Positions 1,788 through 25,864 of a DNA stretch of 64,000 nucleotides are shown here, in pieces (position 1 is the first letter of the stretch; every line of letters begins with the position of its first letter). This stretch comes from a virus, in IMG/VR virus record IMGVR_UViG_3300005805_009577, positions 117,146 through 181,145 of that record. The stretch is one strand, 5' to 3'. The notes beneath the pieces are model-generated. The model made no database searches, was not told the origin of the DNA, and saw only the letters and a program-made list of their open reading frames with translations. The position numbers were made by a program, and so were the translations under genes.

Positions 1788-1800
1788 TTTTCGGGGTACG
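1788..1800 (+). promoter_or_regulatory. TTTTCGGGGTACG motif, outlying copy
   Basis: Exact GGGGTACG at 1793-1800 with upstream T-run; followed by AAGGA RBS and ORF 1844. Confidence 0.75.
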
Positions 1801-1843
1801 GCCGGTAGTTGGTAGTCGAGAGAACAATACAAGGAACATTAAA

Positions 1844-2059
1844 ATGGCGTCGGTTATTGTTGGAGAAAATATTGACCGTTTTCGTCTCCTTACTATTGCT
1901 AGTGCTTTGCGACTTGAAAGCAAAGGGCTTAAGGGCAAGATTAAGGCAAGTGTAATTGCTCGACAAATTCTTAAGGCTAACGGAATTGTTCCTGCTAAAC
2001 TGCTGGTAGAACTTTGCGAGCAGTTTAAGAACTTTGTTGTTGAAAAGAACAAGGAATAA
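1844..2059 (+). CDS. small basic hypothetical protein of the GGGGTACG regulon
   Basis: 71-aa ORF, GC-richer codons than flanks, RBS and motif directly upstream. Confidence 0.7.
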   Translation: MASVIVGENIDRFRLLTIASALRLESKGLKGKIKASVIARQILKANGIVPAKLLVELCEQFKNFVVEKNKE

Positions 2060-2178
2060 AGAGTGAATAATAACATTGTTTTTTTACTTGATGAAATTTT
2101 TTACGTTCCCGGCTGGTTGCAGACCCTCTTGATCGAAAGTTTGATTGACGGTAAAATGATTGTGGTTGATTAAAAAAC

Positions 2179-2251
2179 GGCCCCATAGTATAACGGTTCA
2201 GTATATCGGGCTTTCATCCCGAAGATCGGAGTTCGATTCTCCGTGGGGTCA
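2179..2251 (+). tRNA. tRNA-Glu(TTC)
   Basis: Acceptor GGCCCCA/TGGGGTC, anticodon arm CGGG-CTTTCAT-CCCG, GTTCGATTC T-loop; no encoded CCA. Confidence 0.92.
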
Positions 2252-2289
2252 TTTTAAAAATTAAATTAAAAGGTTTAAACGAAAAGCCC

Positions 2290-2302
2290 TTTTCGGGGTA
2301 CG
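2290..2302 (+). promoter_or_regulatory. TTTTCGGGGTACG motif, outlying copy upstream of tRNA-Lys
   Basis: Exact GGGGTACG at 2295-2302. Confidence 0.7.
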
Positions 2303-13737: not shown

Positions 13738-13962
13738 ATGCAAGAAAAAGAATATTTAGAAAAATGCTTTGAAGTCTTAAATAGTTTTAATGTCAGATAC
13801 GATGCAGACACTATAAATCTAAACAGTGGGGATTATGGATGTATTCTAAATCCTAATTTTAAATATTATGATCTTTTTGGAGGAGAAAGCATATATTCTA
13901 TTGCAGAGTACGTAGCAAAAAAAACAAATAAAAAAATAATAATGGAGAATGAAAACTACTAA
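13738..13962 (+). CDS. hypothetical protein
   Basis: 74 aa, TATAAATA at 13703 upstream, coupled to the methyltransferase. Confidence 0.55.
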   Translation: MQEKEYLEKCFEVLNSFNVRYDADTINLNSGDYGCILNPNFKYYDLFGGESIYSIAEYVAKKTNKKIIMENENY

Positions 13963-14531
13963 TGGAACATATTTGCCACAAAATACAAGGATATTTTAAT
14001 TATCCTGATTTATACACAAAAATAGCCCAAGAATTACCAGACGGATTTAAATTTGCCGAAATAGGAGTGTGGAAAGGATGTAGTTTAAGTTATTTTGTGG
14101 TAGAAGCAATTAATGCTGGTAAAAACTTTACAGCATATGCTATAGACACATTTGAAGGTAGTATAGAGCATCAAAAAGGACAATGGTGCCACGACCCTAT
14201 AGTAAATACTAAAGATGGATTATACAATCATTTTTTAAGTAATATTGAACCAATAAAAGATAAAATAAAAGTATTACGAGGTAAAAGCACAGATGTAGCC
14301 TTAAGTTTCCCAGATGAATACTTAGACACTTTATTCATAGATGGTGCTCATGATTATGACAGTGTATTAGCAGATTTAAAAGCATATTATCCTAAAGTTA
14401 AACGTGGATCTCCGATATATGGCCATGATCTTGATTGGGCAAGTGTAAGACAAGCAGTAATTGATTTCCGCAAAGAAAAAAATCTAACGCTAACTCCAGT
14501 TAGTCGCAGCAGTTGGAAATTAAGTAATTAA
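13962..14531 (+). CDS. class I SAM-dependent methyltransferase (Methyltransf_24-like)
   Basis: EIGVWKGCS, IDTFEGS, FIDGAHDYDSVLADL, GHD motifs. Confidence 0.85.
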   Translation: MEHICHKIQGYFNYPDLYTKIAQELPDGFKFAEIGVWKGCSLSYFVVEAINAGKNFTAYAIDTFEGSIEHQKGQWCHDPIVNTKDGLYNHFLSNIEPIKDKIKVLRGKSTDVALSFPDEYLDTLFIDGAHDYDSVLADLKAYYPKVKRGSPIYGHDLDWASVRQAVIDFRKEKNLTLTPVSRSSWKLSN

Positions 14532-14640
14532 AACATTATTTAATTATTAACCTTAAAAGGTGTTTTTGGGGTACGTCTTAGCGTTGTAAGCCGACACTGG
14601 TTCGGTAAAAGACTGGAATGATAAATTTAGAGGTGATAAT

Positions 14641-14871
14641 ATGGCTAAGGTTGACGCTGCTTCGTTTGTGGATGCGTGGGTTAAGATTTATGAGCAGGGT
14701 GGCTCGCAGAGTGATGTTGCTCGTGAAATTGGCACTTCGGCTGCTAACGTGTCGAATCGTGCTAAGAAGTTGCGTGATGCGGGAGTTGATCTTCCCGAAC
14801 TGACGATTACGCGTGGTGTTAAGCTTGACGTTGAGTCGCTTAACGCTCGGCTGAAGGCTCGGATTGGTTGA
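14641..14871 (+). CDS. HTH DNA-binding protein, paralog 1
   Basis: GGSQSDVAREIGTSAANVSNRAKKLRDAGVDLP helix-turn-helix pattern; GAGGTG RBS. Confidence 0.85.
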   Translation: MAKVDAASFVDAWVKIYEQGGSQSDVAREIGTSAANVSNRAKKLRDAGVDLPELTITRGVKLDVESLNARLKARIG

Positions 14872-14890
14872 AATTAATCAAAGGGAATAA

Positions 14891-14929
14891 TTAGTCCCCG
14901 GGTTTTCCGCAAGGAGAACCTGGGGCTAA
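14891..14929 (+). terminator. GCAA-loop hairpin after HTH paralog 1
   Basis: Long stem whose mismatches are G-U pairs on the + transcript plus one bulge; only a short T-run follows. Confidence 0.6.
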
Positions 14930-15021
14930 CCCTTTATTTATTGCTAAAATATAAAGACCTTCTCTGGGTACGGCAGTCTGTTGTCAGGGACGGTAATAAC
15001 AAACATATAAGAGAACCTACT

Positions 15022-15123
15022 ATGGCTATTATGTTTAGTTGGATGCTTTTGATTGCTATTATGGCTACCGTGTTCGGTGCGGTTGATTTTGCCTTTAGCG
15101 TAATCGACCGATACTTATCCTAA
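15022..15123 (+). CDS. 33-aa hydrophobic micro-peptide
   Basis: MAIMFSWMLLIAIMATVFGAVDFAFSVIDRYLS after motif 14965; one TM-length hydrophobic stretch. Confidence 0.55.
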   Translation: MAIMFSWMLLIAIMATVFGAVDFAFSVIDRYLS

Positions 15124-15281
15124 TCTTTATCAGTTTCTTTTACTGATAATAGTTTTTGGAGTTTTTCGTATAGTTGGCCTACAGCACTCATGTCGCTTGC
15201 TTTAAAACATCCGCGTTGTGAAGCAGCGTCAATAATAGCAATAATGTTTCCAATGTCCTGATCGTTTAGTTGATTTTCCAT
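15120..15281 (-). CDS. small hypothetical protein (53 aa)
   Basis: MENQLNDQDIGNIIAIIDAASQRGCFKASDMSAVGQLYEKLQKLL...; convergent with the micro-peptide. Confidence 0.55.
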   Translation of the reverse strand: MENQLNDQDIGNIIAIIDAASQRGCFKASDMSAVGQLYEKLQKLLSVKETDKD

Positions 15282-15303
15282 AAAATAATATAGTTAAAAA
15301 TTT

Positions 15304-15374
15304 CCTAGGTGGAAACCGGTAGGCAAGTCACTCTTATAAGGTGACGACGCAAGGTTCGACTCCTTGACCTAGGA
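15304..15374 (+). tRNA. tRNA-Ile(TAT)-like, atypical D-arm
   Basis: Acceptor CCTAGGT/ACCTAGG, anticodon arm TCACT-CTTATAA-GGTGA, T-arm CAAGG-TTCGACT-CCTTG; D-arm pairs poorly. Confidence 0.55.
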
Positions 15375-15387
15375 CTTAATATTTAGC

Positions 15388-15585
15388 ATGGATACAGCCG
15401 CATATAAACAACTCTACGATCTTTATGTTGTTGCTAAGTCTGAAACAAATAATTTAGACTATATCAACGAACTGATTGACCAAATTTTATTTTTTGGAAC
15501 TGAGACAAACAAGTTGACCAAAACCCATGTTCAAGAACGACTTAAAGATGTGCTTGAATCTATTGAACGATCGCTGCTAAAATAG
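15388..15585 (+). CDS. hypothetical protein
   Basis: 65-aa ORF between two tRNAs. Confidence 0.55.
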   Translation: MDTAAYKQLYDLYVVAKSETNNLDYINELIDQILFFGTETNKLTKTHVQERLKDVLESIERSLLK

Positions 15586-15593
15586 TTTAATAT

Positions 15594-15666
15594 GGGAGTA
15601 TAGTCCAACGGCAGAGACAAAGGACTTAAAATCCTTCAAGTTCAGGTTCGAATCCTGATACTCCTA
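15594..15666 (+). tRNA. tRNA-Leu(TAA), short variable loop
   Basis: Anticodon arm AAGGA-CTTAAAA-TCCTT, GGTTCGAATCC, acceptor GGGAGTA/TACTCCT. Confidence 0.88.
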
Positions 15667-15889
15667 CTTATGCTAGTTCATTTAGAAAACGGTAAAACTT
15701 ATAAAATAGTAGAATCTTGGATTAAAGAAAAGAAAATCTACTATCCTGCCGACATATTAGGTATGAATCTGCCCGAACCAAAACCCAGGTTCAAATTAAC
15801 GCCTAAAGGAATTAAAATAAAAGAATAAGACTCTTGAATCATAAATTTTTTTCTGATATAATATTTTCAATTATAGGAGAAAAAAGTTT

Positions 15890-16120
15890 ATGATGATTAC
15901 GTTTAATCCTGGTAAAAATGAATTATTTACCATGGAGTTTAATCGAAGAGAAGATTGGAATCAATATGTAGAAAGTTTTAATAAAGTTGGTGAGTTGCAG
16001 CCTCTCAACCATCCAGATCGTTTTCCTTGTGTTATGATTTACGATAATAATATTCTTCCGATAGATGCAGAACATAATAAGTACTATAACTTTTTCTTGT
16101 ATTATTATGCGAATGCTTAA
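15890..16120 (+). CDS. hypothetical protein
   Basis: 76 aa, AGGAG RBS. Confidence 0.6.
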   Translation: MMITFNPGKNELFTMEFNRREDWNQYVESFNKVGELQPLNHPDRFPCVMIYDNNILPIDAEHNKYYNFFLYYYANA

Positions 16121-16159
16121 GTTGAGTCCGAACGACAGGTTGGTAATACTTTTAATATT

Positions 16160-16474
16160 GTGGAATATTTACTTCTTAATAGCATTAAAATGAACAGCAT
16201 TGATGAACTTGTATCAAAGGTTCGTGAAGAAATCACCAACCGAGATATTAAAATCTCTCAGCTTAATAATACCATTGAAAATATGTATAAGGCTTTGGCC
16301 AAGATTAAAATAGATCTTGATCGAAGTCTACGAGGTAAAAAGGATGTATTAAACAATGCAATAGCAGCAGTTGAACTTGCTAGAAGCGTTACACCTTATC
16401 ATAATTATTCAACAGGTCAAAATACTATTGACCAACCATATTCAGAAGAAGAAAAGAGTAAGATTTTAGAATAA
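16160..16474 (+). CDS. coiled-coil hypothetical protein
   Basis: 104-aa ORF; true start may be ATG 16190. Confidence 0.55.
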   Translation: MEYLLLNSIKMNSIDELVSKVREEITNRDIKISQLNNTIENMYKALAKIKIDLDRSLRGKKDVLNNAIAAVELARSVTPYHNYSTGQNTIDQPYSEEEKSKILE

Positions 16475-16550
16475 TAAAATTAGCAGCCCCTTTTCGGGGT
16501 ACGGTCTGATAACGGCCCGATAACAACCATCCCTTTCCGCGAGGATACTT

Positions 16551-16751
16551 ATGTTTAATTTTGAAGGTAAGGATTACGAGTTGATCGACGGCAACATTGT
16601 TGACAGCCGTACTTATCTTTTGGTTTGCAACGAAGTTGCTACCAAGATTTGTGAAACTTTCGGCGTTACGATGAAGCAAGAGCAAACTTCGCGGGAAAAC
16701 ATCGACGTTGCTTTTCTGAACAGTCGGATTAAGAACAAGATTGGTGCTTAA
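16551..16751 (+). CDS. hypothetical protein of the GGGGTACG regulon
   Basis: 66 aa, GAGGA RBS, motif at 16496. Confidence 0.7.
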   Translation: MFNFEGKDYELIDGNIVDSRTYLLVCNEVATKICETFGVTMKQEQTSRENIDVAFLNSRIKNKIGA

Positions 16752-16753
16752 TC

Positions 16754-17827
16754 ATGGATAACAAGTTCACACTATCATCTGAAAAACTTGAATCACGACG
16801 GCTGTGTAGTGTAACTAGAGACTTGCTTTATGTTCGGGTGCGGTTTAGCGATCAGGCTAACGCACCTGAAACTATAGAGACAAGCAACTTTATTGTGAAC
16901 AAAACGGCAACTGCTATTCGAGATTTTAGTGGAGGACAAGTTAATCTTTCCACTACTATACGAGATGTAACATTGCCGTATAGGGCAAGTTATTATGGCA
17001 CTAATACTTACACAATTTCTAATCACGCTCAAAATATACTTCGTCAATCTGGACTGAACCTGAATAATTACGAACATAGTAATTTCAGGTACAACAGTCG
17101 TGCAGGATTTTTTGTAGGTTTAGGAGAAGTAGGCGGTAAGATTACTTGGACTAAAGACTCTGATCCGGGTACGCTTATTCATGAAATTGGACATAATTTA
17201 GGATTGCGTCATAGCAGTTTTGTTAATCCAAATAATAATGCTCATCCTTTTGGGCCAGGACGAACTTTTGAATATGGCGATGTATTTTCCAATATGGGTA
17301 ATGCTCGTTATACCGATTGGAACGCAACTCAAAAGTGGGCTTTAGGTTACATTTCAAACAACAGTGTTAGAGCTGTAAATGCTAATAGTTTTAATATCGT
17401 TGTTAGCTCTCATGACAATGCAGCGTTTTACAATAAAAGCGAAGTATATCTAGTTAATATTCCTATTGGTGGTAACAATTCAATATATGCAAGTTACAGG
17501 CGTGATGCCGGCGGTGTTGTGATTCATGTTGGCAATAGTTTTAGGCCAACCGGCGATACTTTAATTGACGGCAATCCGCAAACTGAATTGAGTACAGACG
17601 CTGCTCTTAAACTTGGACAGTCAATTACCAATTTTAGAAGGCCGGGAGTTAGCGACGATATTAGAATTACTGTAACGAGCATTGTGGGCAATCGTGCAAC
17701 CATTAATGTGAACTTCGGTGCAGTCGTACCTAAAATAGCTCATAATGCAAACTTGATTGCTGCATTTGCAAGCATGGCAAACGAACCTGTAGAAAGATGC
17801 AAAATCAGATACCCTGTTAGGTTGTAG
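16754..17827 (+). CDS. zinc metalloprotease, gametolysin/M11-like, with planctomycete-type N-terminal motif
   Basis: HEIGHNLGLRH (HExxHxxGxxH), downstream EYGD...MG; N-terminal EKLESRRL. Confidence 0.8.
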   Translation: MDNKFTLSSEKLESRRLCSVTRDLLYVRVRFSDQANAPETIETSNFIVNKTATAIRDFSGGQVNLSTTIRDVTLPYRASYYGTNTYTISNHAQNILRQSGLNLNNYEHSNFRYNSRAGFFVGLGEVGGKITWTKDSDPGTLIHEIGHNLGLRHSSFVNPNNNAHPFGPGRTFEYGDVFSNMGNARYTDWNATQKWALGYISNNSVRAVNANSFNIVVSSHDNAAFYNKSEVYLVNIPIGGNNSIYASYRRDAGGVVIHVGNSFRPTGDTLIDGNPQTELSTDAALKLGQSITNFRRPGVSDDIRITVTSIVGNRATINVNFGAVVPKIAHNANLIAAFASMANEPVERCKIRYPVRL

Positions 17828-17917
17828 GTTTAAAACTTAAATAAAATTTCAAGAAAACTTAAAGCCCCTTTTCGGGGTACGCTCTTGAAATGTCGGAGAG
17901 TTTACAGGGAGATAACA

Positions 17918-18433
17918 ATGCAACGTAGAAACTTTATCAAAGGCTTACTTGCAAGTACAGTTGCAGGAACTTTTCCAGCAACGGCAGATGCAAGTGATAA
18001 CGTTCAACTTAATCAAAGAATTGTAAATATTGCCCGTGGTGCGATTGGCAAGCCCGGTGGCAATCGTTACAATAGTTGGCTTTTTGGTTATAATGTTATG
18101 ATGGCTGCTGGTGGTCGTGGGCCTTATCATGGCCCGCAAAACCAATATGCTTGGGGTAGACCAATAGGTTGGAATGAACTTGGCCCGGGCGATTATATTC
18201 AAATTGAATCGCCAACTGTTTTTAAAACCCCTCCGCCTAATTGTCGTGCATATTGGGGTTGTAGTGGACGTTGCACTTGGATTGTTTTAAACAGACAAAA
18301 TGGTCGAGCACCTGGAAGCGTACTTAACATAGCGTATATGTATCGTGTGAACAGGGTGCAGGCTGCTAGGATTGACGTTTGGGATAGAACTTGTGGAAAC
18401 CAAATATATCTTTACAGACCACAATTACGGTAA
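17918..18433 (+). CDS. Tat-signal secreted hypothetical protein
   Basis: MQRRNFIKGLLASTVAG...ADA twin-arginine signal; GGAGA RBS; motif at 17874. Confidence 0.7.
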   Translation: MQRRNFIKGLLASTVAGTFPATADASDNVQLNQRIVNIARGAIGKPGGNRYNSWLFGYNVMMAAGGRGPYHGPQNQYAWGRPIGWNELGPGDYIQIESPTVFKTPPPNCRAYWGCSGRCTWIVLNRQNGRAPGSVLNIAYMYRVNRVQAARIDVWDRTCGNQIYLYRPQLR

Positions 18434-18473
18434 TTTTTAAATAATTTTAATAAATAGTTCAAGGAGGATATTA

Positions 18474-18704
18474 ATGAGCGACCGTGATAGTGACAACCAA
18501 GAAAAAGAAAAGAAAAAAGTAAAGTTTAACAGCCGCTTTGCTCGTGCTGTTTTGTTCTATGTTGAGAATGAATATGAAATCGTAATTGAAGAAAAGAGCA
18601 TTGAAATACAAAGAGCAGCGTTAAAGCTGCTTAAAGAACTAAAGGCAGGCGGAAATAACGTTCCTAACACGGCACATGTGATTGCTTATAATATTCCCTT
18701 GTAA
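18474..18704 (+). CDS. hypothetical protein
   Basis: 76 aa, AGGAGG RBS. Confidence 0.65.
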   Translation: MSDRDSDNQEKEKKKVKFNSRFARAVLFYVENEYEIVIEEKSIEIQRAALKLLKELKAGGNNVPNTAHVIAYNIPL

Positions 18705-18914
18705 TTACCAATGATGAATTATATTGGCTATTACAAATCCGCAAGTTATAAAATTAACTAGAACTATTATGAATCTGATACCTAGACTTATCAAAGCCAT
18801 TTCTACGCTTAAAATAGGAATATCAGGTGTATCACTATCATTAGTTCCTATTCTATAATCTATTGTTCTGGCTAATAATAATACAAATTTACTAGATACT
18901 AATTTTCTTAACAT
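18705..18914 (-). CDS. small membrane hypothetical protein
   Basis: 69 aa, GGAGGA RBS upstream on - strand, hydrophobic C-terminus. Confidence 0.55.
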   Translation of the reverse strand: MLRKLVSSKFVLLLARTIDYRIGTNDSDTPDIPILSVEMALISLGIRFIIVLVNFITCGFVIANIIHHW

Positions 18915-19033
18915 AAATCCTCCTTGAATATTAGCTTCCTAATAGTATTTATAAAAAAGAAATAATAAAATTCAATCATCCTTTTCGGGGTACGGCTCTA
19001 GGATACTAGCCGGTAAAACCTGAGAGAAAAAAA

Positions 19034-19282
19034 ATGAACACTATTTATCCAAAAGGTGCATGGAACGTACGGATTAAGGCAAACATTGAAACTTTTCTTG
19101 ATGCCTATTTGACGGTACTTAACAACGGTGGTAATTACGGCGATGTTGCTCGAATTATCGGCTGTGAAATCATTGATGTTCAATTTGCAGAAGTGCGAAT
19201 CCGTGCAAGCGGAGTTAAACTTCCTAGGCTGAATTTTACTGAGGAAAATGATGATCGAGTTGTTATGCTGATGCAGTCATAA
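19034..19282 (+). CDS. HTH paralog, divergent (A)
   Basis: TFLDAY...NGGNYGDVARIIGC...SGVKLPRL aligns with the family; motif at 18987. Confidence 0.7.
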   Translation: MNTIYPKGAWNVRIKANIETFLDAYLTVLNNGGNYGDVARIIGCEIIDVQFAEVRIRASGVKLPRLNFTEENDDRVVMLMQS

Positions 19283-19320
19283 AAATAAATAAAAGACTAT
19301 CACATTATATACCGATTATC

Positions 19321-19356
19321 AAATACACCCGGTCTTTCGACCGGGTGTATTTTTTT
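19321..19356 (+). terminator. rho-independent terminator
   Basis: Perfect 14-bp stem, TTTC loop, T-run after; stem ends 24 nt before motif 19376. Confidence 0.8.
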
Positions 19357-19362
19357 GTTTAT

Positions 19363-19707
19363 TTAAAAGTTTTTTGGGGTACGGTGTATTGACCAATTTT
19401 TATTAAACAAAAAAAGAAAAATTAATCCAGTGATTAAAAACAAGGTCGAATTAGGTTCAGGTACTGGCGTGGGTACCGGTTCTGGTTCTGGTGTTCTTAA
19501 TATCATTGCTAAAAAATACATGCTTTGATCGCTGGCTACAACAGAAGTATCAGCAGTATAATTAAAACTTTCGCCAAGAAGTTCTAAAAAATGATCTACG
19601 TTATACTCAGAATATAAATCAAAAGGATCGCTATACCAATGATAGCCGTTAATATATGATCCTGATGCGTAGCCTATATTAAGCAAATCTATTTCGGCAG
19701 TTTCCAT
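19363..19707 (-). CDS. PEP-CTERM-like protein
   Basis: C-terminal PEPEPVPTPVPEPNSTLFLITGLIFLFLFNK = VPEP + TM helix + basic tail; ATG 19707 with GGAG upstream, start uncertain. Confidence 0.6.
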   Translation of the reverse strand: METAEIDLLNIGYASGSYINGYHWYSDPFDLYSEYNVDHFLELLGESFNYTADTSVVASDQSMYFLAMILRTPEPEPVPTPVPEPNSTLFLITGLIFLFLFNKNWSIHRTPKNF

Positions 19708-19831
19708 AGCCCACTCCAATAATATTATACAAAAAAATAAATTAATTAAAAGATAGAAATAAAGCCTCCTTTTTGGGGTACGTTTTGGGGTTGTGGTTCG
19801 ATTGGTTCTAATAAACAGGAGACTGGTTAAA

Positions 19832-20059
19832 ATGCGAGTTGATGCTGCTACTTTCGTCGATGCTTGGGTCAGTGCTTTCGAAGCCGGTGGCAATCAGAGT
19901 GACGTTGCCCGTACGCTTGGTTGTAGTGCTGCTAACGTGTCGAATCGTGCTAAGAAGTTGCGTGATGCGGGAGTTGATCTTCCCGAACTTACCGTGACTC
20001 GTGGTGTTAAGCTTGACATTGAGTCGCTTAACGCTCGGCTTAAGGCTCGGATTGGTTGA
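19832..20059 (+). CDS. HTH DNA-binding protein, paralog 2
   Basis: MRVDAATFVDAW...SAANVSNRAKKLRDAGVDLPEL; AGGAG RBS; motif at 19775. Confidence 0.85.
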   Translation: MRVDAATFVDAWVSAFEAGGNQSDVARTLGCSAANVSNRAKKLRDAGVDLPELTVTRGVKLDIESLNARLKARIG

Positions 20060-20077
20060 AATTAATATAGGGAATAA

Positions 20078-20117
20078 TTAACCCCTGGGTTTTCCGCAAG
20101 GAGAACCTGGGGGTTAA
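20078..20117 (+). terminator. GCAA-loop hairpin after HTH paralog 2
   Basis: 18-bp stem with three G-U pairs; near copy of 14891 hairpin. Confidence 0.6.
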
Positions 20118-20149
20118 CCCTTAATATTAAAAATACTTTTTGGGGTACG

Positions 20150-20219
20150 GAGGCCGTGTGCGGCCGGTTAAGGGGATCGTCAAGGGTGACCCGTGCGGCC
20201 GATATACCCCTTGACTTTT
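20150..20219 (+). ncRNA. candidate small RNA directly after motif 20142
   Basis: No ORF; GTCAAGGG/CCCTTGAC stem followed by TTTT; internal direct repeat GTGCGGCCG. Confidence 0.35.
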
Positions 20220-20284
20220 AATATAACTTAATTAATCAAAAATAATATGATTTAATAAAATAATCAAAACTCAAGGATGGAGCA

Positions 20285-20647
20285 ATGATTAGTTTACCAA
20301 AGTTTGCAAGGAGGGGAATTTTGTTATATTTACAAATTGCGGCGGCTGTTGTTAGTCTTTTGCTTGGGCTTGCCCAAATGACAAAAGAATCACAACCATT
20401 AATTCAAAAGATGCAACAAAACCATCAACAGGCCGTTGCACAAAAACAAACAGAAAAAGCATGTCGCAAAGCATGTGAAATTGCAAACATGCAGATAGCA
20501 TGGCAGTTTAGGGGGTACGATAGCAATTGGAGATATTATAGCGATCCTAGTGGAAGGTTTTGGGCTAGAGTTAATATTCAAGGCATATATGAGTATTGTG
20601 AAAGCCCGAATTATCAAATTGCAAATAACCCTATAACAATTCGTTAA
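20285..20647 (+). CDS. membrane-anchored or secreted hypothetical protein
   Basis: N-terminal RRGILLYLQIAAAVVSLLLGLA hydrophobic segment; GGAG RBS. Confidence 0.65.
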   Translation: MISLPKFARRGILLYLQIAAAVVSLLLGLAQMTKESQPLIQKMQQNHQQAVAQKQTEKACRKACEIANMQIAWQFRGYDSNWRYYSDPSGRFWARVNIQGIYEYCESPNYQIANNPITIR

Positions 20648-20648
20648 A

Positions 20649-20837
20649 ATGAAAACTAAAAGCGAATATACAGTTCAATTTGATGAACATACGTTAAATC
20701 CCGAAGGACATTATTATATCCTTAAGGACGGCGAAACTTTAATGCTTCCAAAAAGCGATGGAAGCAAGTTACTTCCTACCTTTCCAACTAGAGCGGAAGC
20801 AGAAGAGTATATTCAATTAGTCAAAATACTAAGTTAA
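20649..20837 (+). CDS. hypothetical protein
   Basis: 62 aa, 1-nt gap from previous stop. Confidence 0.6.
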   Translation: MKTKSEYTVQFDEHTLNPEGHYYILKDGETLMLPKSDGSKLLPTFPTRAEAEEYIQLVKILS

Positions 20838-20838
20838 A

Positions 20839-21090
20839 ATGACCATTGCTGAAATTATATACCAACTGAGCAAGTTTGACCCGAACACTAGGGTTGTTGT
20901 TGATGGTTACGAGGGAGGTTTCGATGATCCTAGAATCGTTGAAGAAACTGCCATCATTGACGCTAACTGGACTGTTGTTGATAAAGGGCGTGGAACCGAA
21001 GGCAAACGGCATAATTGGAATGGCCGTCATGATTACGGTACTTGTTACACTGAATGTCATAATACTAAAGTAATTCTTATAGGAAGATAA
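20839..21090 (+). CDS. hypothetical phage protein
   Basis: MTIAEIIYQLSKFDPNTRVVVDGYEGG, a pattern frequent in small phage ORFs. Confidence 0.65.
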   Translation: MTIAEIIYQLSKFDPNTRVVVDGYEGGFDDPRIVEETAIIDANWTVVDKGRGTEGKRHNWNGRHDYGTCYTECHNTKVILIGR

Positions 21091-21198
21091 ATCAAGAATC
21101 ATGCTGGTTTAAATAAAGAATCCTTTTCGGGGTACGGTATTGAGTTGCGGCTGGTTAAGAGACTCTTGACTCCCGCTAATTTTTAATTATAATAAGAA

Positions 21199-21279
21199 GA
21201 TATTCAGTTATGACCACGTAACGGAGGGTACGTTAGAAGTTAAGGACTATGGGCCTTACACGAACTCCTACTGAATATC
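21199..21279 (+). ncRNA. candidate structured RNA downstream of motif 21129
   Basis: Perfect 10-bp closing stem GATATTCAGT/ACTGAATATC, inner GGAG/CTCC and TAAGG/CCTTA stems; no ORF. Confidence 0.4.
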
Positions 21280-21313
21280 CTGCAATACAAAGTTAATAAA
21301 ACGCCACCGCCAA

Positions 21314-21352
21314 CACTCCGAAAGCACTAACCAACAGTTGCGATTAGGGGTG
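21314..21352 (+). repeat. structured repeat, copy 1 (CACYCC-GAAA-GCA...TGC-GAYTA-GGGGTG)
   Basis: Second copy at 21710-21747; outer ACGCC/GGCGT stem 21301-21360. Confidence 0.6.
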
Positions 21353-21462
21353 ACAGGCGTAAAAAAATAATAAATTAAATTAACCAGTATCATTAAAAAG
21401 TCTTTTGGGAGTACGTCCTAAGGTTGTGGTGGTTACGACCCGCGAAACCGGAGCATAAAACA

Positions 21463-21687
21463 ATGCAACTTACATTCGAAGAAAAGACCCTGAAGTATCT
21501 TGATGGCGTGAACATCAACATTGACCTTGGAACTTTCATTGACGAATATATGAAGGCTTACAAGGCCGGTCAGACTAAGGCTGAACTTGGCGAGACGCTT
21601 GGCATCAATCATATTGAAGTTGCGATTATTGTTGACAAGATGGCTAGTTTCGGTGTGAAACTTCCCCAACTTCGGATTCAGATTTAG
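21463..21687 (+). CDS. HTH paralog, divergent (B)
   Basis: GTFIDEYMKAYKAGQTKAELGETLG...FGVKLPQL aligns with the family; GGAG RBS; motif variant at 21408. Confidence 0.65.
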   Translation: MQLTFEEKTLKYLDGVNINIDLGTFIDEYMKAYKAGQTKAELGETLGINHIEVAIIVDKMASFGVKLPQLRIQI

Positions 21688-21709
21688 TTTAACAAAACCC
21701 CAACGCCAA

Positions 21710-21747
21710 CACCCCGAAAGCACTAAGTTACAGTGCGACTAGGGGTG
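21710..21747 (+). repeat. structured repeat, copy 2
   Basis: CACCCC-GAAA-GCACT-loop-AGTGC-GACTA-GGGGTG. Confidence 0.6.
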
Positions 21748-21779
21748 GAAAACACTTGTGAAAGGGTTTGTGAAGCAAA

Positions 21780-21989
21780 ATGAATCAAACCTATAGCATT
21801 CGTATCATTTTCGATGGAAGCAAATATGATACTACGCTTATCTCAGGGTTTACTTATAAGCAAGCATTCGAATATGCTCGTAAGTGTGTAACAAAAGAGA
21901 TTAATTATCTCTTGTTCTCTGGTCGGAATGTGAACATATACGTTGAAAATGATTTGGGAAAAAGGCTTGCAACTTACTACGTATATTAA
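21780..21989 (+). CDS. hypothetical protein flanked by TTGTGAA pairs
   Basis: 69-aa ORF. Confidence 0.6.
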   Translation: MNQTYSIRIIFDGSKYDTTLISGFTYKQAFEYARKCVTKEINYLLFSGRNVNIYVENDLGKRLATYYVY

Positions 21990-22021
21990 ACTTTTTGTGA
22001 AAACATTTGTGAAGAGTCAGT

Positions 22022-22118
22022 AAAAACACTAAAAAAAGCCTAAAAAACACTAAAAAAAGCCTAAAAAAGCTTAAAAAAAGCCAAAAATAAGCTAAAAAAC
22101 AAGCCAAAAAATGAAAAA
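22022..22118. repeat. phased A-tract array
   Basis: A5-7 tracts start at 22022,22031,22042,22052,22063,22073,22083,22094,22106,22114. Confidence 0.8.
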
Positions 22119-22292
22119 TATACTCAATATACTTGCTATTTTAAGTACATTAACACTCAATGGAAGTGAATTTGGATGTACTCTTTGGGCAAATTTAACA
22201 TTGTTTAGGTTCTAATTGAAAGTTAACCGCACCTTTTAGCGGTACGGTAACTGGGTGTGACGGTTGGAACTAACCCCTAGGAGAAGGTTAAC

Positions 22293-22520
22293 ATGCGAGT
22301 TGATGCCAACACTTTCATCGACACTTGGTGCGACGTTTACGACAACGGTGGAAATCAAAGTGACGTTGCAAGGCGTTTAGGTTGCAGTGCGGCTAACGTA
22401 AGTAATCGTGCAAAGAAACTGCGTGATGCCGGAGTTGATTTGCCTGAATTGACAGTTACTCGTGGTGTGAAACTTGATATTGAAAGTCTAAACGCAAGGC
22501 TGCGTGAACGAATCGGTTAA
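22293..22520 (+). CDS. HTH DNA-binding protein, paralog 3
   Basis: MRVDANTFIDTW...identical HTH core; AGGAG RBS; motif variant at 22239. Confidence 0.85.
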   Translation: MRVDANTFIDTWCDVYDNGGNQSDVARRLGCSAANVSNRAKKLRDAGVDLPELTVTRGVKLDIESLNARLRERIG

Positions 22521-22535
22521 ATAAATATACCGAAA

Positions 22536-22565
22536 GTTATACCCGGAGTAAAATCCGGGTATAAC
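22536..22565 (+). terminator. GTTATACCC-type hairpin
   Basis: Perfect 12-bp stem GTTATACCCGGA/TCCGGGTATAAC; identical to 23407. Confidence 0.65.
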
Positions 22566-22697
22566 CGTTTATATTAAAAATCCTTTTAGAGGTACGGCAG
22601 GATAGAACAAGTTTGTGAACTTACTTGTGAAGGTTAAAACAAACTTGTGAAACCTTTTCGGAGTACGGCTACGGGTTAACCCCGGAGAAATATACCA

Positions 22698-22886
22698 ATG
22701 AGCCAGCGAGTTAAAGAGCAAATGAAACGTGATGCTGAAATTCACGCTAACGGCCGGTTTACTCCACGAGATAGAGAAGATGTTAATCGTATTGTGGAGA
22801 TACTTGTGAACCGGCAATTTGCCGTTAGGGTATCATCAGAAGTTGAAACCCAAGTAAACGAAACGATCAAAGAAATAATTAATTGA
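22698..22886 (+). CDS. hypothetical protein of the regulon
   Basis: 62 aa, GGAGA RBS, motif variant at 22660. Confidence 0.7.
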   Translation: MSQRVKEQMKRDAEIHANGRFTPRDREDVNRIVEILVNRQFAVRVSSEVETQVNETIKEIIN

Positions 22887-22893
22887 GAGAAAA

Positions 22894-22923
22894 GATTATA
22901 CCTAGGTTAAACTGGGTATAATC
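22894..22923 (+). terminator. GTTATACCC-type hairpin
   Basis: GATTATACCTAG/CTGGGTATAATC, one G-U pair. Confidence 0.65.
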
Positions 22924-22953
22924 GTTATAATTACAAATTGTTTTTGGGGTACG

Positions 22954-23085
22954 GCAAAAGGTTGCTAAGCCGCCTATGAATAGCACTCGTTAGGTAGTTC
23001 GGATGGGCGACAACTAACGATAAAAGCGGATAGTTATATTACTTGTTTCTCCGTGAGTAATATAATGAAATATAACGGAGACTAT
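22954..23085 (+). ncRNA. candidate small RNA with hairpin and H-type pseudoknot
   Basis: TCGTTAG/CTAACGA stem; 10-bp stem 23034-43/23056-65 whose loop TCTCCGT pairs with ACGGAGA 23075-81; no ORF between motifs 22946 and 23111. Confidence 0.45.
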
Positions 23086-23158
23086 ATTTTAAAAATTAAA
23101 AGTTAATTTTGGGGTACGGTAACTGGGTGTGATCGGTTAACCCTTGGAGATAACAATC

Positions 23159-23389
23159 ATGGCACGAGTTGACGCTGGCAATTTCATCGAAGTGTGGTGC
23201 GACGTTTACGACAACGGTGGAAATCAAAGTGACGTTGCCCGTAAACTGGGTTGCAGTGCGGCTAACGTAAGTAATCGTGCAAAGAAACTGCGTGATGCCG
23301 GAGTTGATTTGCCTGAATTGACAGTTACTCGTGGCGTTAAACTTGACATTGAAAGTTTGAATGCCCGGCTGCGTGAACGAATCGGTTGA
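23159..23389 (+). CDS. HTH DNA-binding protein, paralog 4
   Basis: MARVDAGNFIEVW...; GGAGA RBS; motif at 23111. Confidence 0.85.
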   Translation: MARVDAGNFIEVWCDVYDNGGNQSDVARKLGCSAANVSNRAKKLRDAGVDLPELTVTRGVKLDIESLNARLRERIG

Positions 23390-23406
23390 AAAAAGTGTGA
23401 ACGCGA

Positions 23407-23436
23407 GTTATACCCGGAGTAAAATCCGGGTATAAC
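23407..23436 (+). terminator. GTTATACCC-type hairpin
   Basis: Perfect 12-bp stem. Confidence 0.65.
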
Positions 23437-23570
23437 CGTTTATATTAAAAAACCTTTTAGGGGTACGGCTATAGGTTGACAATTTGATTGGTAATAAAGT
23501 ATAATTAAAAAAAAGATTACTATTGGCTTTTAGGGGTACGGTAGGTTGACGTCTCACAGGAGAAAACGAA

Positions 23571-23639
23571 ATGTATAGGTATTACGTTGATTGCCTTGGT
23601 CGAGTTTACGATATACAGACGGGATTAAGAATCAAGTAA
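23571..23639 (+). CDS. 22-aa micro-peptide
   Basis: MYRYYVDCLGRVYDIQTGLRIK; AGGAG RBS; motif at 23533. Confidence 0.55.
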   Translation: MYRYYVDCLGRVYDIQTGLRIK

Positions 23640-23722
23640 AGTAGGCAAAACTTTTTTGCCGACGACAGTTGTCTTTTTGGGGTACGTTGAGACGGTGGGT
23701 TCAGTCGTCCAGGAGAAACATC

Positions 23723-23797
23723 GTGCGAAATGCAGATAAGGCGATTTTGGCGGTTTCATTCATCATGGGCATTATCGTCGCTATTATAATCGCCTAA
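23723..23797 (+). CDS. 24-aa hydrophobic micro-peptide (GTG start)
   Basis: MRNADKAILAVSFIMGIIVAIIIA; AGGAG RBS; motif at 23679; hairpin follows. Confidence 0.6.
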   Translation: MRNADKAILAVSFIMGIIVAIIIA

Positions 23798-23802
23798 AAG
23801 AA

Positions 23803-23833
23803 GTTATACCCTAGGATAAGCCTAGGGTATAAC
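23803..23833 (+). terminator. GTTATACCC-type hairpin
   Basis: Perfect 13-bp stem. Confidence 0.65.
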
Positions 23834-23913
23834 CGTTGATACTACGAAACCTTTTTTGGGTACGTTATCGGGGTGTCGCCGGTTGAGAGCGACAAACTAA
23901 CGGAGAAAAAGAA

Positions 23914-24144
23914 ATGGCACGGGTTGACGCTGGTAGTTTCGTCGATGCTTGGATGGATGCTTATGACAAGGGTGGCAATCAGAGCGACGTTGCTCGTACG
24001 CTTGGTTGCTCTGCCGCGAACGTTTCGAACCGTGCTAAGAAACTTCGGGAAGCCGGGGTTGACCTGCCTGAACTTCAGGTTGTGCGGGGCGTCAAGTTGG
24101 ATATTGAAAGCCTGAACGCTCGTCTTAAGGCGAGGATCGGCTGA
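23914..24144 (+). CDS. HTH DNA-binding protein, paralog 5
   Basis: MARVDAGSFVDAW...; GGAGA RBS; motif variant at 23857. Confidence 0.85.
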   Translation: MARVDAGSFVDAWMDAYDKGGNQSDVARTLGCSAANVSNRAKKLREAGVDLPELQVVRGVKLDIESLNARLKARIG

Positions 24145-24152
24145 TAACAAAA

Positions 24153-24182
24153 GTTATACCCGGGGTAAAACCCGGGTATAAC
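24153..24182 (+). terminator. GTTATACCC-type hairpin
   Basis: Perfect 12-bp stem. Confidence 0.65.
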
Positions 24183-24223
24183 CCTTTACACACATATACC
24201 TTTTTGGGGTACGGCAAGAGGGC

Positions 24224-24307
24224 ATGGATACTATCATCGCTATTACGTTTGCTTTCGTCGGTGCCGGGTTTATAGGCAAGTATCTTTGGAACGAAATGGA
24301 ATATTAA
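24224..24307 (+). CDS. 27-aa hydrophobic micro-peptide
   Basis: MDTIIAITFAFVGAGFIGKYLWNEMEY; GAGGG RBS; ATG 11 nt after motif 24206. Confidence 0.6.
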   Translation: MDTIIAITFAFVGAGFIGKYLWNEMEY

Positions 24308-24377
24308 ACGAACGGCTACAGCCGCCAAGGCGATGCCGGTCTTTTCGGGGTACGGCGGACATGAGGAGGGCAAAGCG

Positions 24378-24500
24378 ATGCCTCTAGTAAGTGCAATCGT
24401 CTTCTTATTAATCCGTAGCGTATCTGCTAGGCTATATCGGATTAGCCAGGTTCGTTCTGAACCGGTTTATCCAGTTCTTATCGGAGCAAAAGGAAGGTAG
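24378..24500 (+). CDS. 40-aa micro-peptide
   Basis: MPLVSAIVFLLIRSVSARLY...; GAGGAGG RBS; motif at 24347. Confidence 0.5.
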   Translation: MPLVSAIVFLLIRSVSARLYRISQVRSEPVYPVLIGAKGR

Positions 24501-24504
24501 ACCC

Positions 24505-24612
24505 ATGACTATAGATGAAGCAATGGCATTTAGTTTCGTTCGTTATGGCATTATGTCTTACGAAGAATTCCTAGTATGGCTAGCAAAACAGCAGATAGTA
24601 AAGGCTAGCTAG
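24505..24612 (+). CDS. 35-aa micro-peptide
   Basis: MTIDEAMAFSFVRYGIMSYEEFLVWLAKQQIVKAS; GGAAGG RBS; hairpin follows the stop. Confidence 0.55.
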   Translation: MTIDEAMAFSFVRYGIMSYEEFLVWLAKQQIVKAS

Positions 24613-24615
24613 GTA

Positions 24616-24648
24616 GATTACACCCTAGAGAAAATCTAGGGTGTAATC
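24616..24648 (+). terminator. GTTATACCC-type hairpin variant
   Basis: Perfect 14-bp stem GATTACACCCTAGA/TCTAGGGTGTAATC; substitutions are compensatory relative to other copies. Confidence 0.65.
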
Positions 24649-24709
24649 CTAACAATCCCCTGAGCTTTTTGGGGTACGTTACAGGGTTGTCTCAAGGAGG
24701 ATGACAACA

Positions 24710-24874
24710 ATGGAAACAGCAGTTAGCATCGCGGTTATGATGGGAGTTGGATTTGCGGCTGCCCTTGCACAAGTTATTTCGGACATGATGGAAGAAAAGG
24801 CCATTGTCCGAAACAACGAAGACAAGGCTAGGATCATCATGGAAGAATACGAAGAATATACGGAGGGGGTATAA
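24710..24874 (+). CDS. 54-aa single-TM peptide with acidic tail
   Basis: METAVSIAVMMGVGFAAALAQVIS...EEYEEYTEGV; AAGGAGG RBS; motif at 24671. Confidence 0.65.
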   Translation: METAVSIAVMMGVGFAAALAQVISDMMEEKAIVRNNEDKARIIMEEYEEYTEGV

Positions 24875-24952
24875 CATACCCTTATCTGACCTAGAACCTT
24901 TTTGGGGTACGTTACAACATCGTGGTCGATAACACTAACTGGAGAAAAAGAA

Positions 24953-25183
24953 ATGGCACGAGTTGACGCTGCTAACTTCGTCGATGCTTGGATGAACGCG
25001 TATGAGAACGGTGGCAATCAGAGTGACGTTGCCCGTGACCTTGGTTGTAGTGCTGCGAACGTCAGCAACCGGGCTAAGAAACTTCGGGATGCCGGGGTTG
25101 ACCTGCCTGAACTGACCGTCACGCGGGGCGTCAAGTTGGATATTGAAAGCCTGAACGCTCGACTGAAGGCTAGGATCGGTTGA
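24953..25183 (+). CDS. HTH DNA-binding protein, paralog 6
   Basis: MARVDAANFVDAW...; GGAGA RBS; motif at 24904. Confidence 0.85.
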   Translation: MARVDAANFVDAWMNAYENGGNQSDVARDLGCSAANVSNRAKKLRDAGVDLPELTVTRGVKLDIESLNARLKARIG

Positions 25184-25189
25184 ACCTAA

Positions 25190-25219
25190 GTTATACCCTA
25201 GGGAAACCTAGGGTATAAC
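25190..25219 (+). terminator. GTTATACCC-type hairpin, GAAA loop
   Basis: Perfect 13-bp stem. Confidence 0.65.
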
Positions 25220-25291
25220 CCTTTACATGCATATACCTTTTCGGGGTACGGCAAGGGTATGTGGATCGGTTAACCCTAGGAGAAAAGAATC

Positions 25292-25534
25292 ATGCGGACA
25301 CGAAAGAGTCGTATCAGCGTTCAGCGTTTCGTTTCGACTTGGTGCCGGGTGTATCGTCAGGGTGGCAATCAGGATATGGTTGCAAAGGCTCTGCATTGCA
25401 CCGGTGCTAACGTCAGTATTCGTGCCAAGGCTTTGCGTAAGAGTGGCGTGAAGTTGCCACCGCTGAATCCCGGTCGGGTTTATGACACGGCTGTTGTGAG
25501 AATGAACAAAGACATTGCGGAAATGATTGGATAG
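25292..25534 (+). CDS. HTH paralog, divergent (C)
   Basis: RFVSTW...GGNQDMVAKALHCTGANVSIRAKALRKSGVKLPPL; AGGAG RBS; motif at 25243. Confidence 0.75.
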   Translation: MRTRKSRISVQRFVSTWCRVYRQGGNQDMVAKALHCTGANVSIRAKALRKSGVKLPPLNPGRVYDTAVVRMNKDIAEMIG

Positions 25535-25545
25535 TTCCTAGGGTG

Positions 25546-25579
25546 GTAACGGTGCCGGGGTAACTAAGGCAACCGTTAC
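25546..25579 (+). terminator. hairpin closing the cassette array
   Basis: GTAACGGTGCC/GGCAACCGTTAC with one bulge. Confidence 0.5.
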
Positions 25580-25864
25580 TAACTCATAACATTAAGGAAA
25601 AATAAAAAGCAAAATTAAAAAATAAATAAAATAATTTTACAAAGTTAAATAAAAAAATCAAAACTAAGAAAAAACCTGGAGCTATTAGGGGTACAGGGAC
25701 CCCGGAACTGCCATTACAGCCTTTCTTTTTATTAAACCCTATCTTTTTTCGTCCACACCCTATATTGGCTTGTAATGAATTTCTATTGCGTTTATTACAA
25801 AATTAATCTAAATGGTCGCCTGCACAAGTCCCTACAACCTAAAAAAATTAGAAAATCGTTTTTA

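Follow-up and report, generated by a model that had tools for sequence, protein, structure and literature searches.

A repeated GGTACG motif, in part joined to RNA hairpins, as candidate promoter of small-gene cassettes in a large uncultured freshwater phage

Introduction

The closest described counterparts of the locus treated here are the PeSL (promoter-early stem-loop) cassettes of T4-type phages, known from RB49/phi1, PST/T4 and nt-1/KVP40 (PMC2839356, PMC4122927). The locus is an 11-kb island of small genes in a viral contig (IMG/VR record IMGVR_UViG_3300005805_009577), where a short motif, cCTTTTnGGGGTACG, is repeated 24 times on one strand and is preceded at some copies by an RNA hairpin. 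The DNA analysed, called the window, comprises 64,000 nucleotides, bases 117,146-181,145 of a single linear contig of 181,145 bp (30.5% G+C; CheckV completeness 78%). Positions are those of the window unless marked as genome. An earlier note on this DNA had proposed repeated expression cassettes and likened them to PeSLs.

That likeness was borne out by the units that fuse stem-loop and putative promoter and by an indel bounded by the joints. As with PeSLs, a composite intergenic unit of candidate terminator stem-loop and promoter is repeated among small uncharacterised genes in a plastic region, and the repeated unit marks the limits of indels that separate close relatives, here in one case, L025/L027 (PMC2839356, PMC4122927). 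Stem-loop and motif are fused in 10-11 island units; the remaining units have the motif alone. PeSLs differ in that they are defined by a sigma70-type promoter with an AT-rich upstream region, whereas the island logo has no -35 or -10 consensus; in addition, the stem-loop of the island is found on fewer than half of the promoters, its stems are not polyG/polyC, and its motif varies by lineage. The T4 core genes Gp23 and prohead protease were not found in the contig, which is 78% complete. By analogy, the island works like PeSLs and is not a member of the PeSL family. Calling it an undescribed system was overstated, since PeSL-type cassettes had already been described. The new elements are the motif, its lineage variants and a multi-copy helix-turn-helix (HTH) cargo; for the motif consensus no counterpart was found in the phage literature searched. 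The PeSL idea of terminator-promoter joints as shuffling sites would thereby be extended beyond T4-type phages and host-type promoters.

Promoters with a single element, read by a phage-encoded sigma factor, are the T4 late promoters (TATAAATA, read by gp55) and the gp36 promoters of phiEco32. The island would share with them a phage-encoded sigma70-family protein, one block around -10 with no -35 element, and a genome-wide distribution over one gene class. It differs in a G+C-rich block (GGTACG) with a T-rich upstream part, in a sigma with regions 2 and 4, and in a geometry that is inferred. The host-takeover module of phage SPO1 uses host sigmaA promoters and is located in the terminal redundancy. 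Like the island, it groups ~24 small genes, and many of them come with a promoter, a strong ribosome-binding site and a terminator to themselves (PMC6873191). The promoter class of the island, in contrast, would be a non-host one. Promoters of T7-class single-subunit polymerases share one half among T7, T3 and SP6, and the other half is lineage-variable. The island has a similar conserved block of ~20-25 nt that spans the likely start and varies by lineage in one half; unlike in the T7 class, no such polymerase was found in the contig, by a search whose control also found nothing. An N4-type promoter contains, at every site, a short DNA hairpin (5-7-bp stem, 3-nt loop), whereas the island hairpins have 12-14-bp stems and 4-8-nt loops, stand 16-17 nt upstream of the motif, and are missing from more than half of the sites.

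The motif and its distribution

With up to one mismatch, TTTTnGGGGTACG matched the window at 26 positions, all on the + strand (expected 0.10). Twenty-four of these matches fall in 14,563-25,250, and 14 of them in 22.2-25.3 kb, in agreement with the earlier count of about 24 one-strand repeats that are densest at the right end. The copies are as follows.

14563..25250, + strand, motif array, 24 copies of cCTTTTnGGGGTACG with a GGTTG-like box 6-7 nt downstream
14563, 16491, 17869, 18982, 19371, 19770, 20137, 20507, 21124, 21403, 22234, 22584, + strand, motif starts, first half
22655, 22941, 23106, 23455, 23528, 23674, 23852, 24201, 24342, 24666, 24899, 25238, + strand, motif starts, second half
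1788..2302, + strand, two copies outside the island (1788, 2290), the one at 2290 between tRNA-Glu and tRNA-Lys
14960..14972, + strand, weaker copy TTCTCTGGGTACG with two mismatches, a hairpin before it and tRNA-Ile and tRNA-Leu downstream

Motif sites are intergenic and lie 10-70 nt upstream of a ribosome-binding site and start codon, or upstream of tRNA genes. The copy at 20507, inside an open reading frame (ORF), is the lone such case among the island copies. The ribosome-binding site claimed for the units was found, in GGAG form, in most of them. The inserts are G+C-richer than their surroundings, also as claimed: G+C is 0.34-0.47 at 14-26 kb and 0.28-0.30 in the flanks, and the median G+C at third codon positions (GC3) is ~0.38-0.40 in island genes vs 0.22 elsewhere.

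The motif is not tied to the island but occurs genome-wide: allowing one mismatch, the whole contig has 34 sites, and allowing two it has 43, every one of them on the + strand. About 40 copies are placed at the head of genes, operons or tRNAs across a 140-kb + strand block; no site was found in the mixed-strand region at 26-64 kb of the window. The proposal of an immediate-early host-takeover module was not upheld, because the motif heads ~40 units over 140 kb and not the island alone, and host-type promoters occur elsewhere. With a phage-encoded sigma as the sole candidate reader (see below), genes behind the motif would be middle-class.

DNA nearly identical to the window was found in lake/freshwater metagenomes of four studies; no RNA run was listed among those containing the sequence. 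Neither the island DNA nor the HTH protein had a match in the GenBank phage collection, and neither the HTH protein nor the sigma factor had relatives in an IMG/VR search. An IMG/VR scan with a 15-base motif gave single matches at chance level only; one of them, L015, was dropped as unrelated G+C-rich DNA.

The motif as a candidate promoter

The full logo is cCTTTTnGGGGTACGgt-N5-G(g/t)TGtgg, with zero information at the -35 position. Sigma70-like sites are not enriched in the island (39 vs 34 ± 6 expected), and the motif is the sole recurrent element ahead of genes and tRNAs. From this sequence evidence the motif would be a phage-specific promoter of its own, non-sigma70-like class; the earlier claim of a separate promoter class agrees with the missing sigma70 enrichment and the lack of a conserved -35. 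At 24342 the ribosome-binding site starts 9 nt after the motif, so the start site should lie within or right after the motif. The geometry is compatible with a -10-type element placed ~7 nt ahead of the start or, alternatively, with a T7-style block that covers it.

Among the HTH-bearing relatives, every fetched contig had the same architecture but a lineage-specific version of the signal:

L036 and L030, CCTTTTnGGGGTACG, as in the window
L034, CCTTTTTGCGGTACG
L025-L029 and L044, TTACTGGGTTGGTACG (short form ACTGGGTTGGTACG in L025 and L044)
L046 and L047, TTAATGTCTGGGTACG
L039-L041, TACTGTCGGGGTACG

Across these contigs all variation is confined to the upstream half; neither the core GGTACG nor the downstream GG(g/t)TG box changes. 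The signal stands directly before tRNAs in relatives too (L025:10203, L044:2529). Such a pattern, with the core invariant and one half specific to the clade, would be expected of a promoter whose reader is phage-encoded and co-evolves with it. If so, the large, uncultured lake phages of this clade would have a promoter code that can be tested (GGTACG core, upstream half specific to the lineage).

Near-consensus sigma70 promoters (at least 11/12 positions) were counted genome-wide at 23 sites on the + strand and nine on the - strand. Six were perfect, where a rough composition-based estimate gives ~0.3 per strand. This excess suggests that the host probably uses ordinary promoters and that the motif is a second class. 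Two such sites lie in the island:

23476..23505, + strand, TTGACA-18-TATAAT, a sigma70-type promoter without mismatch, within the ORF-less stretch that separates motifs 23455 and 23528
21166-21193, 11/12 sigma70-type site

Together with 2311-2340, these perfect or near-perfect sites lie in ORF-less spacers right behind a GGTACG motif. In all three the GGTTG box of the motif also serves as the TTGAC of the -35 element, and they may be dual promoters.

Hairpins and composite joints

A strong hairpin (12-14-bp stem, 4-8-nt loop) is present in only ~10-11 of the 24 island units. The recurrent unit of the earlier note was thus confirmed for the motif and not for a hairpin in every unit. The hairpins are placed after stop codons, and the loop GTAAAA is widely kept. 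Their folding energies range from -17 to -30 kcal/mol (z-scores -4 to -7). The following copies were recorded.

22536..22565, + strand, terminator-type hairpin GTTATACCCGGA-GTAAAA-TCCGGGTATAAC, -20.5 kcal/mol, 18 nt ahead of motif 22584
22894..22923, + strand, hairpin with one G.U pair, full pairing only in + strand RNA, -17.3 kcal/mol
23407..23436, + strand, hairpin 17 nt ahead of motif
23803..23833, + strand, hairpin 17 nt ahead of motif
24153..24182, + strand, hairpin 17 nt ahead of motif
24616..24648, + strand, hairpin 16 nt ahead of motif
25190..25219, + strand, hairpin 17 nt ahead of motif
19321..19358, + strand, canonical intrinsic terminator, 14-bp stem then T run, 17 nt ahead of motif 19371
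20080..20115, + strand, long hairpin that includes several G.U pairs, folding at -29.9 kcal/mol, 20 nt ahead of motif 20137
14896-14925, sister copy of hairpin 20080..20115

Covariation was assessed over 12 hairpin copies from five lineages. Pairing was kept in 99.3% of cells, and 9 of the 12 pairs had changed on both sides, a level matched by 0 of 500 shuffles. The G.U pairs of hairpins 22894 and 20080 are mismatches on the opposite strand; they form only on the + strand, which argues that the hairpin acts in + strand RNA. The distance from hairpin end to motif is fixed at 16-17 nt across all lineages, so hairpin, spacer and motif behave as one composite joint. The motif directly follows canonical terminators at genome 7486 and window 19371.

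ORF-less inserts had also been put forward as candidate small RNAs. As structured RNAs they were rejected, for they fold no better than shuffles (z -0.3 to -2.1). An Rfam search returned two tRNAs only, besides two weak matches far under the gathering scores. A separate two-helix repeat, CACCCC..GCACU-N7-AGUGC..GGGGUG, occurs at 21302-21358 and 21698-21750, either side of the divergent HTH gene 21460-21687. The second copy has a z-score of -4.1, and the GCGATTAGGGGTG part recurs in L034, L036, L044 and L047.

Cassette turnover among relatives

L025 has one more cassette, with an 82-aa HTH-like gene, than L027, a contig from another sample to which it is otherwise 99-100% identical. The extra cassette is flanked by perfect joint repeats of 93 bp, where L027 has a single joint. 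Identical 93-bp flanks against a single joint are the trace that homologous recombination between joints leaves. At 72-77% identity to the window, L036 has its shared genes in a different order, two of them being elsewhere in this genome, and a 4.1-kb insertion (14,941-19,045) distinguishes the window from L036. Cassette order and number are therefore not identical among relatives (L036 shuffled; L027 one cassette fewer than L025), and these sequence comparisons support cassette turnover at the joints. For gain and loss of genes, the idea that shared joints let the content vary was upheld by the L025/L027 indel and the shuffled order of L036.

Two relatives that are 99% identical have unequal copy numbers of a 60-bp tandem repeat (L025:14733-14949 vs L026:6233-6509).

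Candidate reader of the motif

One sigma70-family protein is encoded on the contig (300 aa; genome 23,328-24,230; L033:1132-2034). It has regions 2 and 4, with Sigma70_r2 and Sigma70_r4 matches above cut-offs, and also matches phrog_351. Its homologues, at 30-68% identity, lie on metagenome contigs of 126-587 kb, and the length of these contigs suggests kinship with huge phages. L042, with a sigma 52% identical, has GGTACG sites, seven on the + strand vs one on the - strand. L043 (sigma 47% identical) has a related GGGTACA repeat, CTTATCTAGGGTACA, on both strands. A multisubunit polymerase beta subunit was not found in the 78% complete contig. A T7-like polymerase (PF00940) had no match in the contig either, where 22% of the genome is missing; the control matched no genome, so this search is uninformative. 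On the sequence evidence the reader is most likely phage-encoded, with the sigma as best candidate; the alternative would be a polymerase whose gene lies in the 22% of the genome that is missing.

A host-type promoter before the sigma gene was considered and rejected, as the TTGACA at genome 23401 falls within the gene, whose GTG start comes with a GGAG of its own.

The HTH family

Six HTH genes of 75-76 aa, 75-92% identical to each other, are the chief cargo of the island. An AlphaFold2 model of copy 6 has a pLDDT (predicted local distance difference test) score of 84 and consists of a three-helix HTH and a C-terminal helix. The six genes and the more distant members are as follows.

14641..14871, + strand, HTH copy 1, 76 aa, positional orthologue of the first copy in L036, adjoins methyltransferase gene 13962-14531
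19832..20059, + strand, HTH copy 2, 75 aa
22293..22520, + strand, HTH copy 3, 75 aa
23159..23389, + strand, HTH copy 4, 76 aa
23914..24144, + strand, HTH copy 5, 76 aa
24953..25183, + strand, HTH copy 6, 76 aa
25292..25534, + strand, divergent member, 80 aa, 43% identity
21460..21687, + strand, divergent member, orthologues in L034 and L036
19034..19282, + strand, divergent member, 82 aa, missed in the earlier note
16551..16751, + strand, 66-aa gene with marginal family likeness (C-terminal helix), orthologue in L036
genome 97,935-98,177; 92,977-93,318; 111,256-111,492; 7,091-7,423; 46,795-47,136, members beyond the island

The count of six near-identical genes given before was correct. That of three divergent ones was not, since the island has four, one of them marginal, and at least three lie elsewhere in the genome. 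The members at genome 97,935-98,177 and 92,977-93,318 are each directly behind a motif site. Homologues of the protein number 64, all on metagenome contigs, several of which have 2-3 copies. Family searches (Pfam, PHROGs, PDB sequence, Foldseek) gave generic sub-threshold HTH matches only, and the ESM Atlas gave viral clusters without names. The plasmid repressor ArdK/KorA was among the best, though weak, matches in both fold and sequence searches.

At synonymous sites most pairs of HTH copies differ almost to saturation (pS 0.6-0.8), yet their proteins are conserved. The copies of this genome are not monophyletic, copy 1 grouping with its positional orthologue in L036. Saturation and non-monophyly identify them as old, conserved paralogues, and the earlier idea that shared joints had let genes be amplified was dropped on these grounds. 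The recognition helix, NVS(N/T/I)RAK, is almost invariant; its variable position is N in lineages with a CCTTTT-type motif and T or I in those with a TTAnTG-type motif. This split is a lead, not evidence, as it is drawn from two clades only, and L025 (T) and L044 (I) have the same motif. The family is a clear experimental target for how such phages control or redirect transcription.

TTGTGAA(C) direct repeats, 12 nt apart, lie near some units (21756-21775, 21995-22014, 22613-22651), and the clusters are kept in relatives (L034:3640-3720; L036:8150-8260; L046:4677, 5237). They also precede ORF 21780-21989, which has no GGTACG motif. The repeats may be an operator of the HTH family or a second promoter type.

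Proposed mechanism and alternatives

The transcription units would form a genome-wide set in a large uncultured freshwater phage, most densely packed in the island. A ~25-nt promoter, made up of cCTTTTnGGGGTACG, 6-7 variable nt and a GGTTG-like box, would open each unit, with transcription probably starting right after GTACG. About ten island units would close with a strong RNA hairpin, a putative terminator, 16-17 nt ahead of the next promoter. The reader would most likely be phage-encoded, the best candidate being the sigma (genome 23,328-24,230), for which GGTACG would take the role of a -10-like element, without any -35. The cargo would be small genes with strong ribosome-binding sites and G+C-richer codon usage, chiefly the old multi-copy 76-aa HTH family. 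Because the joints of 60-160 nt are repeated, homologous recombination between them could delete, insert and reorder cassettes, as in PeSLs. Taken whole (lineage-specific promoters joined to terminator hairpins, a phage-encoded reader and joint-mediated shuffling), this account is judged somewhat better than even.

Several findings weigh against it. The clean joint-flanked indel was found once only, more than half of the units have no hairpin, and the HTH copies bear no sign of recent amplification. A clean U run follows one hairpin only and is missing from most, so the hairpins may attenuate or stabilise transcript 3' ends instead of terminating. The sigma gene is in an operon behind a motif site, with no host-type promoter to itself; if this factor has to be made first, such an arrangement is awkward. 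A G+C-rich -10-like element is also unusual among sigma70-family factors. The promoter and terminator roles, along with start site, reader and expression timing, are inferred.

The missing U runs are also what an RNA-processing cassette would predict. Here long early transcripts would be cut at or near the motif, the upstream hairpin would guard the 3' end, and the A/U-rich spacer would be an RNase E-type site; the motif would then be a cleavage or protein-binding signal in RNA and no promoter. The fixed hairpin-motif spacing, the A/U-rich, single-stranded spacer, and G.U pairs of a hairpin acting at the RNA level agree with such a scheme. It is nevertheless quite unlikely, because the motif follows canonical terminators with a U run (genome 7486; window 19371), where little RNA would pass, because it heads tRNAs and ORF-less tandem arrays ~70 nt apart, because more than half of the sites have no hairpin, and because no other recurrent promoter-like element would feed ~24 units in 11 kb. 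The motif could instead be mainly an operator or activator box for the multi-copy HTH protein, like the MotA box in T4 middle promoters, with the host polymerase transcribing and the many gene copies supplying enough protein for at least 40 sites per genome. The HTH genes are the most conserved cargo, the family has at least 13 members, many directly behind motifs, and the repressor ArdK/KorA ranks among the best matches, weak as they are, in structure and sequence. The correspondence of N vs T/I in the recognition helix with CCTTTT-type vs TTAnTG-type motifs points the same way, but it is confined to two clades and may be phylogeny alone, and the motif is the same in L025 (T) and L044 (I). 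A host -10-like element at constant distance from the motif is missing, and the repeated word TTGTGAA is an equally good operator candidate. We regard the operator explanation as unlikely. Given a little more room, though still doubtful, is the possibility that GGTACG is read by a new transcription device, either HTH proteins as specificity factors or a new polymerase in the missing part of the genome. The HTH proteins might in that case be a MotA-like activator or sigma appropriator, with 7-13 copies for dosage and a recognition helix co-evolving with the variable motif half. If true, a whole clade of large freshwater phages would have a private promoter code.

Two further explanations concern the array itself. 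Small ORFs in a row, with a conserved, imperfectly repeated hairpin after each of them and content that varies between relatives, resemble an integron-like or other site-specific cassette system, in which the hairpins would be attC-like recombination sites and the motif part of the site. This is very improbable: no PF00589 tyrosine recombinase matched in the 181-kb contig (the control found the family in 14 of 14 genomes), the stems are perfect and read GTTAYAC...GTRTAAC, with GTT at the 5' and AAC at the 3' base, in the reverse of the attC R''/R' order RYYYAAC...GTTRRRY and with no extrahelical bases, every cassette has its own promoter-like motif, and the resolved indel has the 93-bp identical flanks that homologous recombination leaves. 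The island could also be an assembly artefact of collapsed or wrongly chained repeats, and many homologous contigs are indeed short (0.5-8 kb), as repeat-broken assemblies would give. However, eight runs from two studies contain at least 65% of the sampled words of 18,900-25,700, four of the eight being from a study not marked as a possible source, and two further studies contain 37-40%. Independent assemblies (L025, L026, L027, L029) are concordant at 99-100% over 2-6 kb of such array. The HTH copies differ at most synonymous sites and are therefore not collapsed reads from one gene. An artefact is hardly credible.

Other cargo and the island edge

The remaining cargo of the island is listed below.

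15304..15667, + strand, tRNA-Ile (UAU) and tRNA-Leu (UAA)
16754..18433, + strand, larger cargo genes, within the 4.1-kb stretch that has no counterpart in L036
22698..22886, + strand, 62-aa gene, function unassigned, behind the tandem motifs 22584 and 22655
within 23571..24874, + strand, short predicted ORFs preceded by a motif and a ribosome-binding site, as follows
23571-23639 (22 aa), 23723-23797 (24 aa, hydrophobic), 24224-24307 (27 aa, hydrophobic), + strand, small predicted ORFs
24378-24500 (40 aa), 24701-24874 (57 aa), + strand, small predicted ORFs
25590..25710, + strand, right edge of the island: A-rich tract, motif variant TATTAGGGGTACA, then GGGACCCCGG; same edge in L025 and L046

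The cargo includes a 357-aa putative zinc metallopeptidase (Pfam matches sub-threshold only) and a 171-aa protein whose N-terminus has a weak, sub-cutoff likeness to a twin-arginine translocation (TAT) signal.

The right-edge pattern, a long A-rich tract, a degenerate motif and GGGACCC(C)G, was seen across lineages (25590-25710; L025:11400-11480; L046:7770-7834), the degenerate motif reading GGGGTACA or GAGTACG. The edge coincides with the change from the one-way + strand block to mixed-strand genes, and the cumulative GC skew has its maximum ~4 kb beyond it, near 30 kb. Genes at 26000-64000, many of them for glycosyltransferases or sugar-nucleotide enzymes, mostly have no Shine-Dalgarno sequence; TATATAAT-like words often abut the ATG, an expression regime unlike the strong GGAG sites of the island.

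At 22020-22110, ahead of a small ORF at 22111, GCCTAAAAAA-like units recur every 10-11 nt; these phased A-tracts are probably intrinsically curved DNA.

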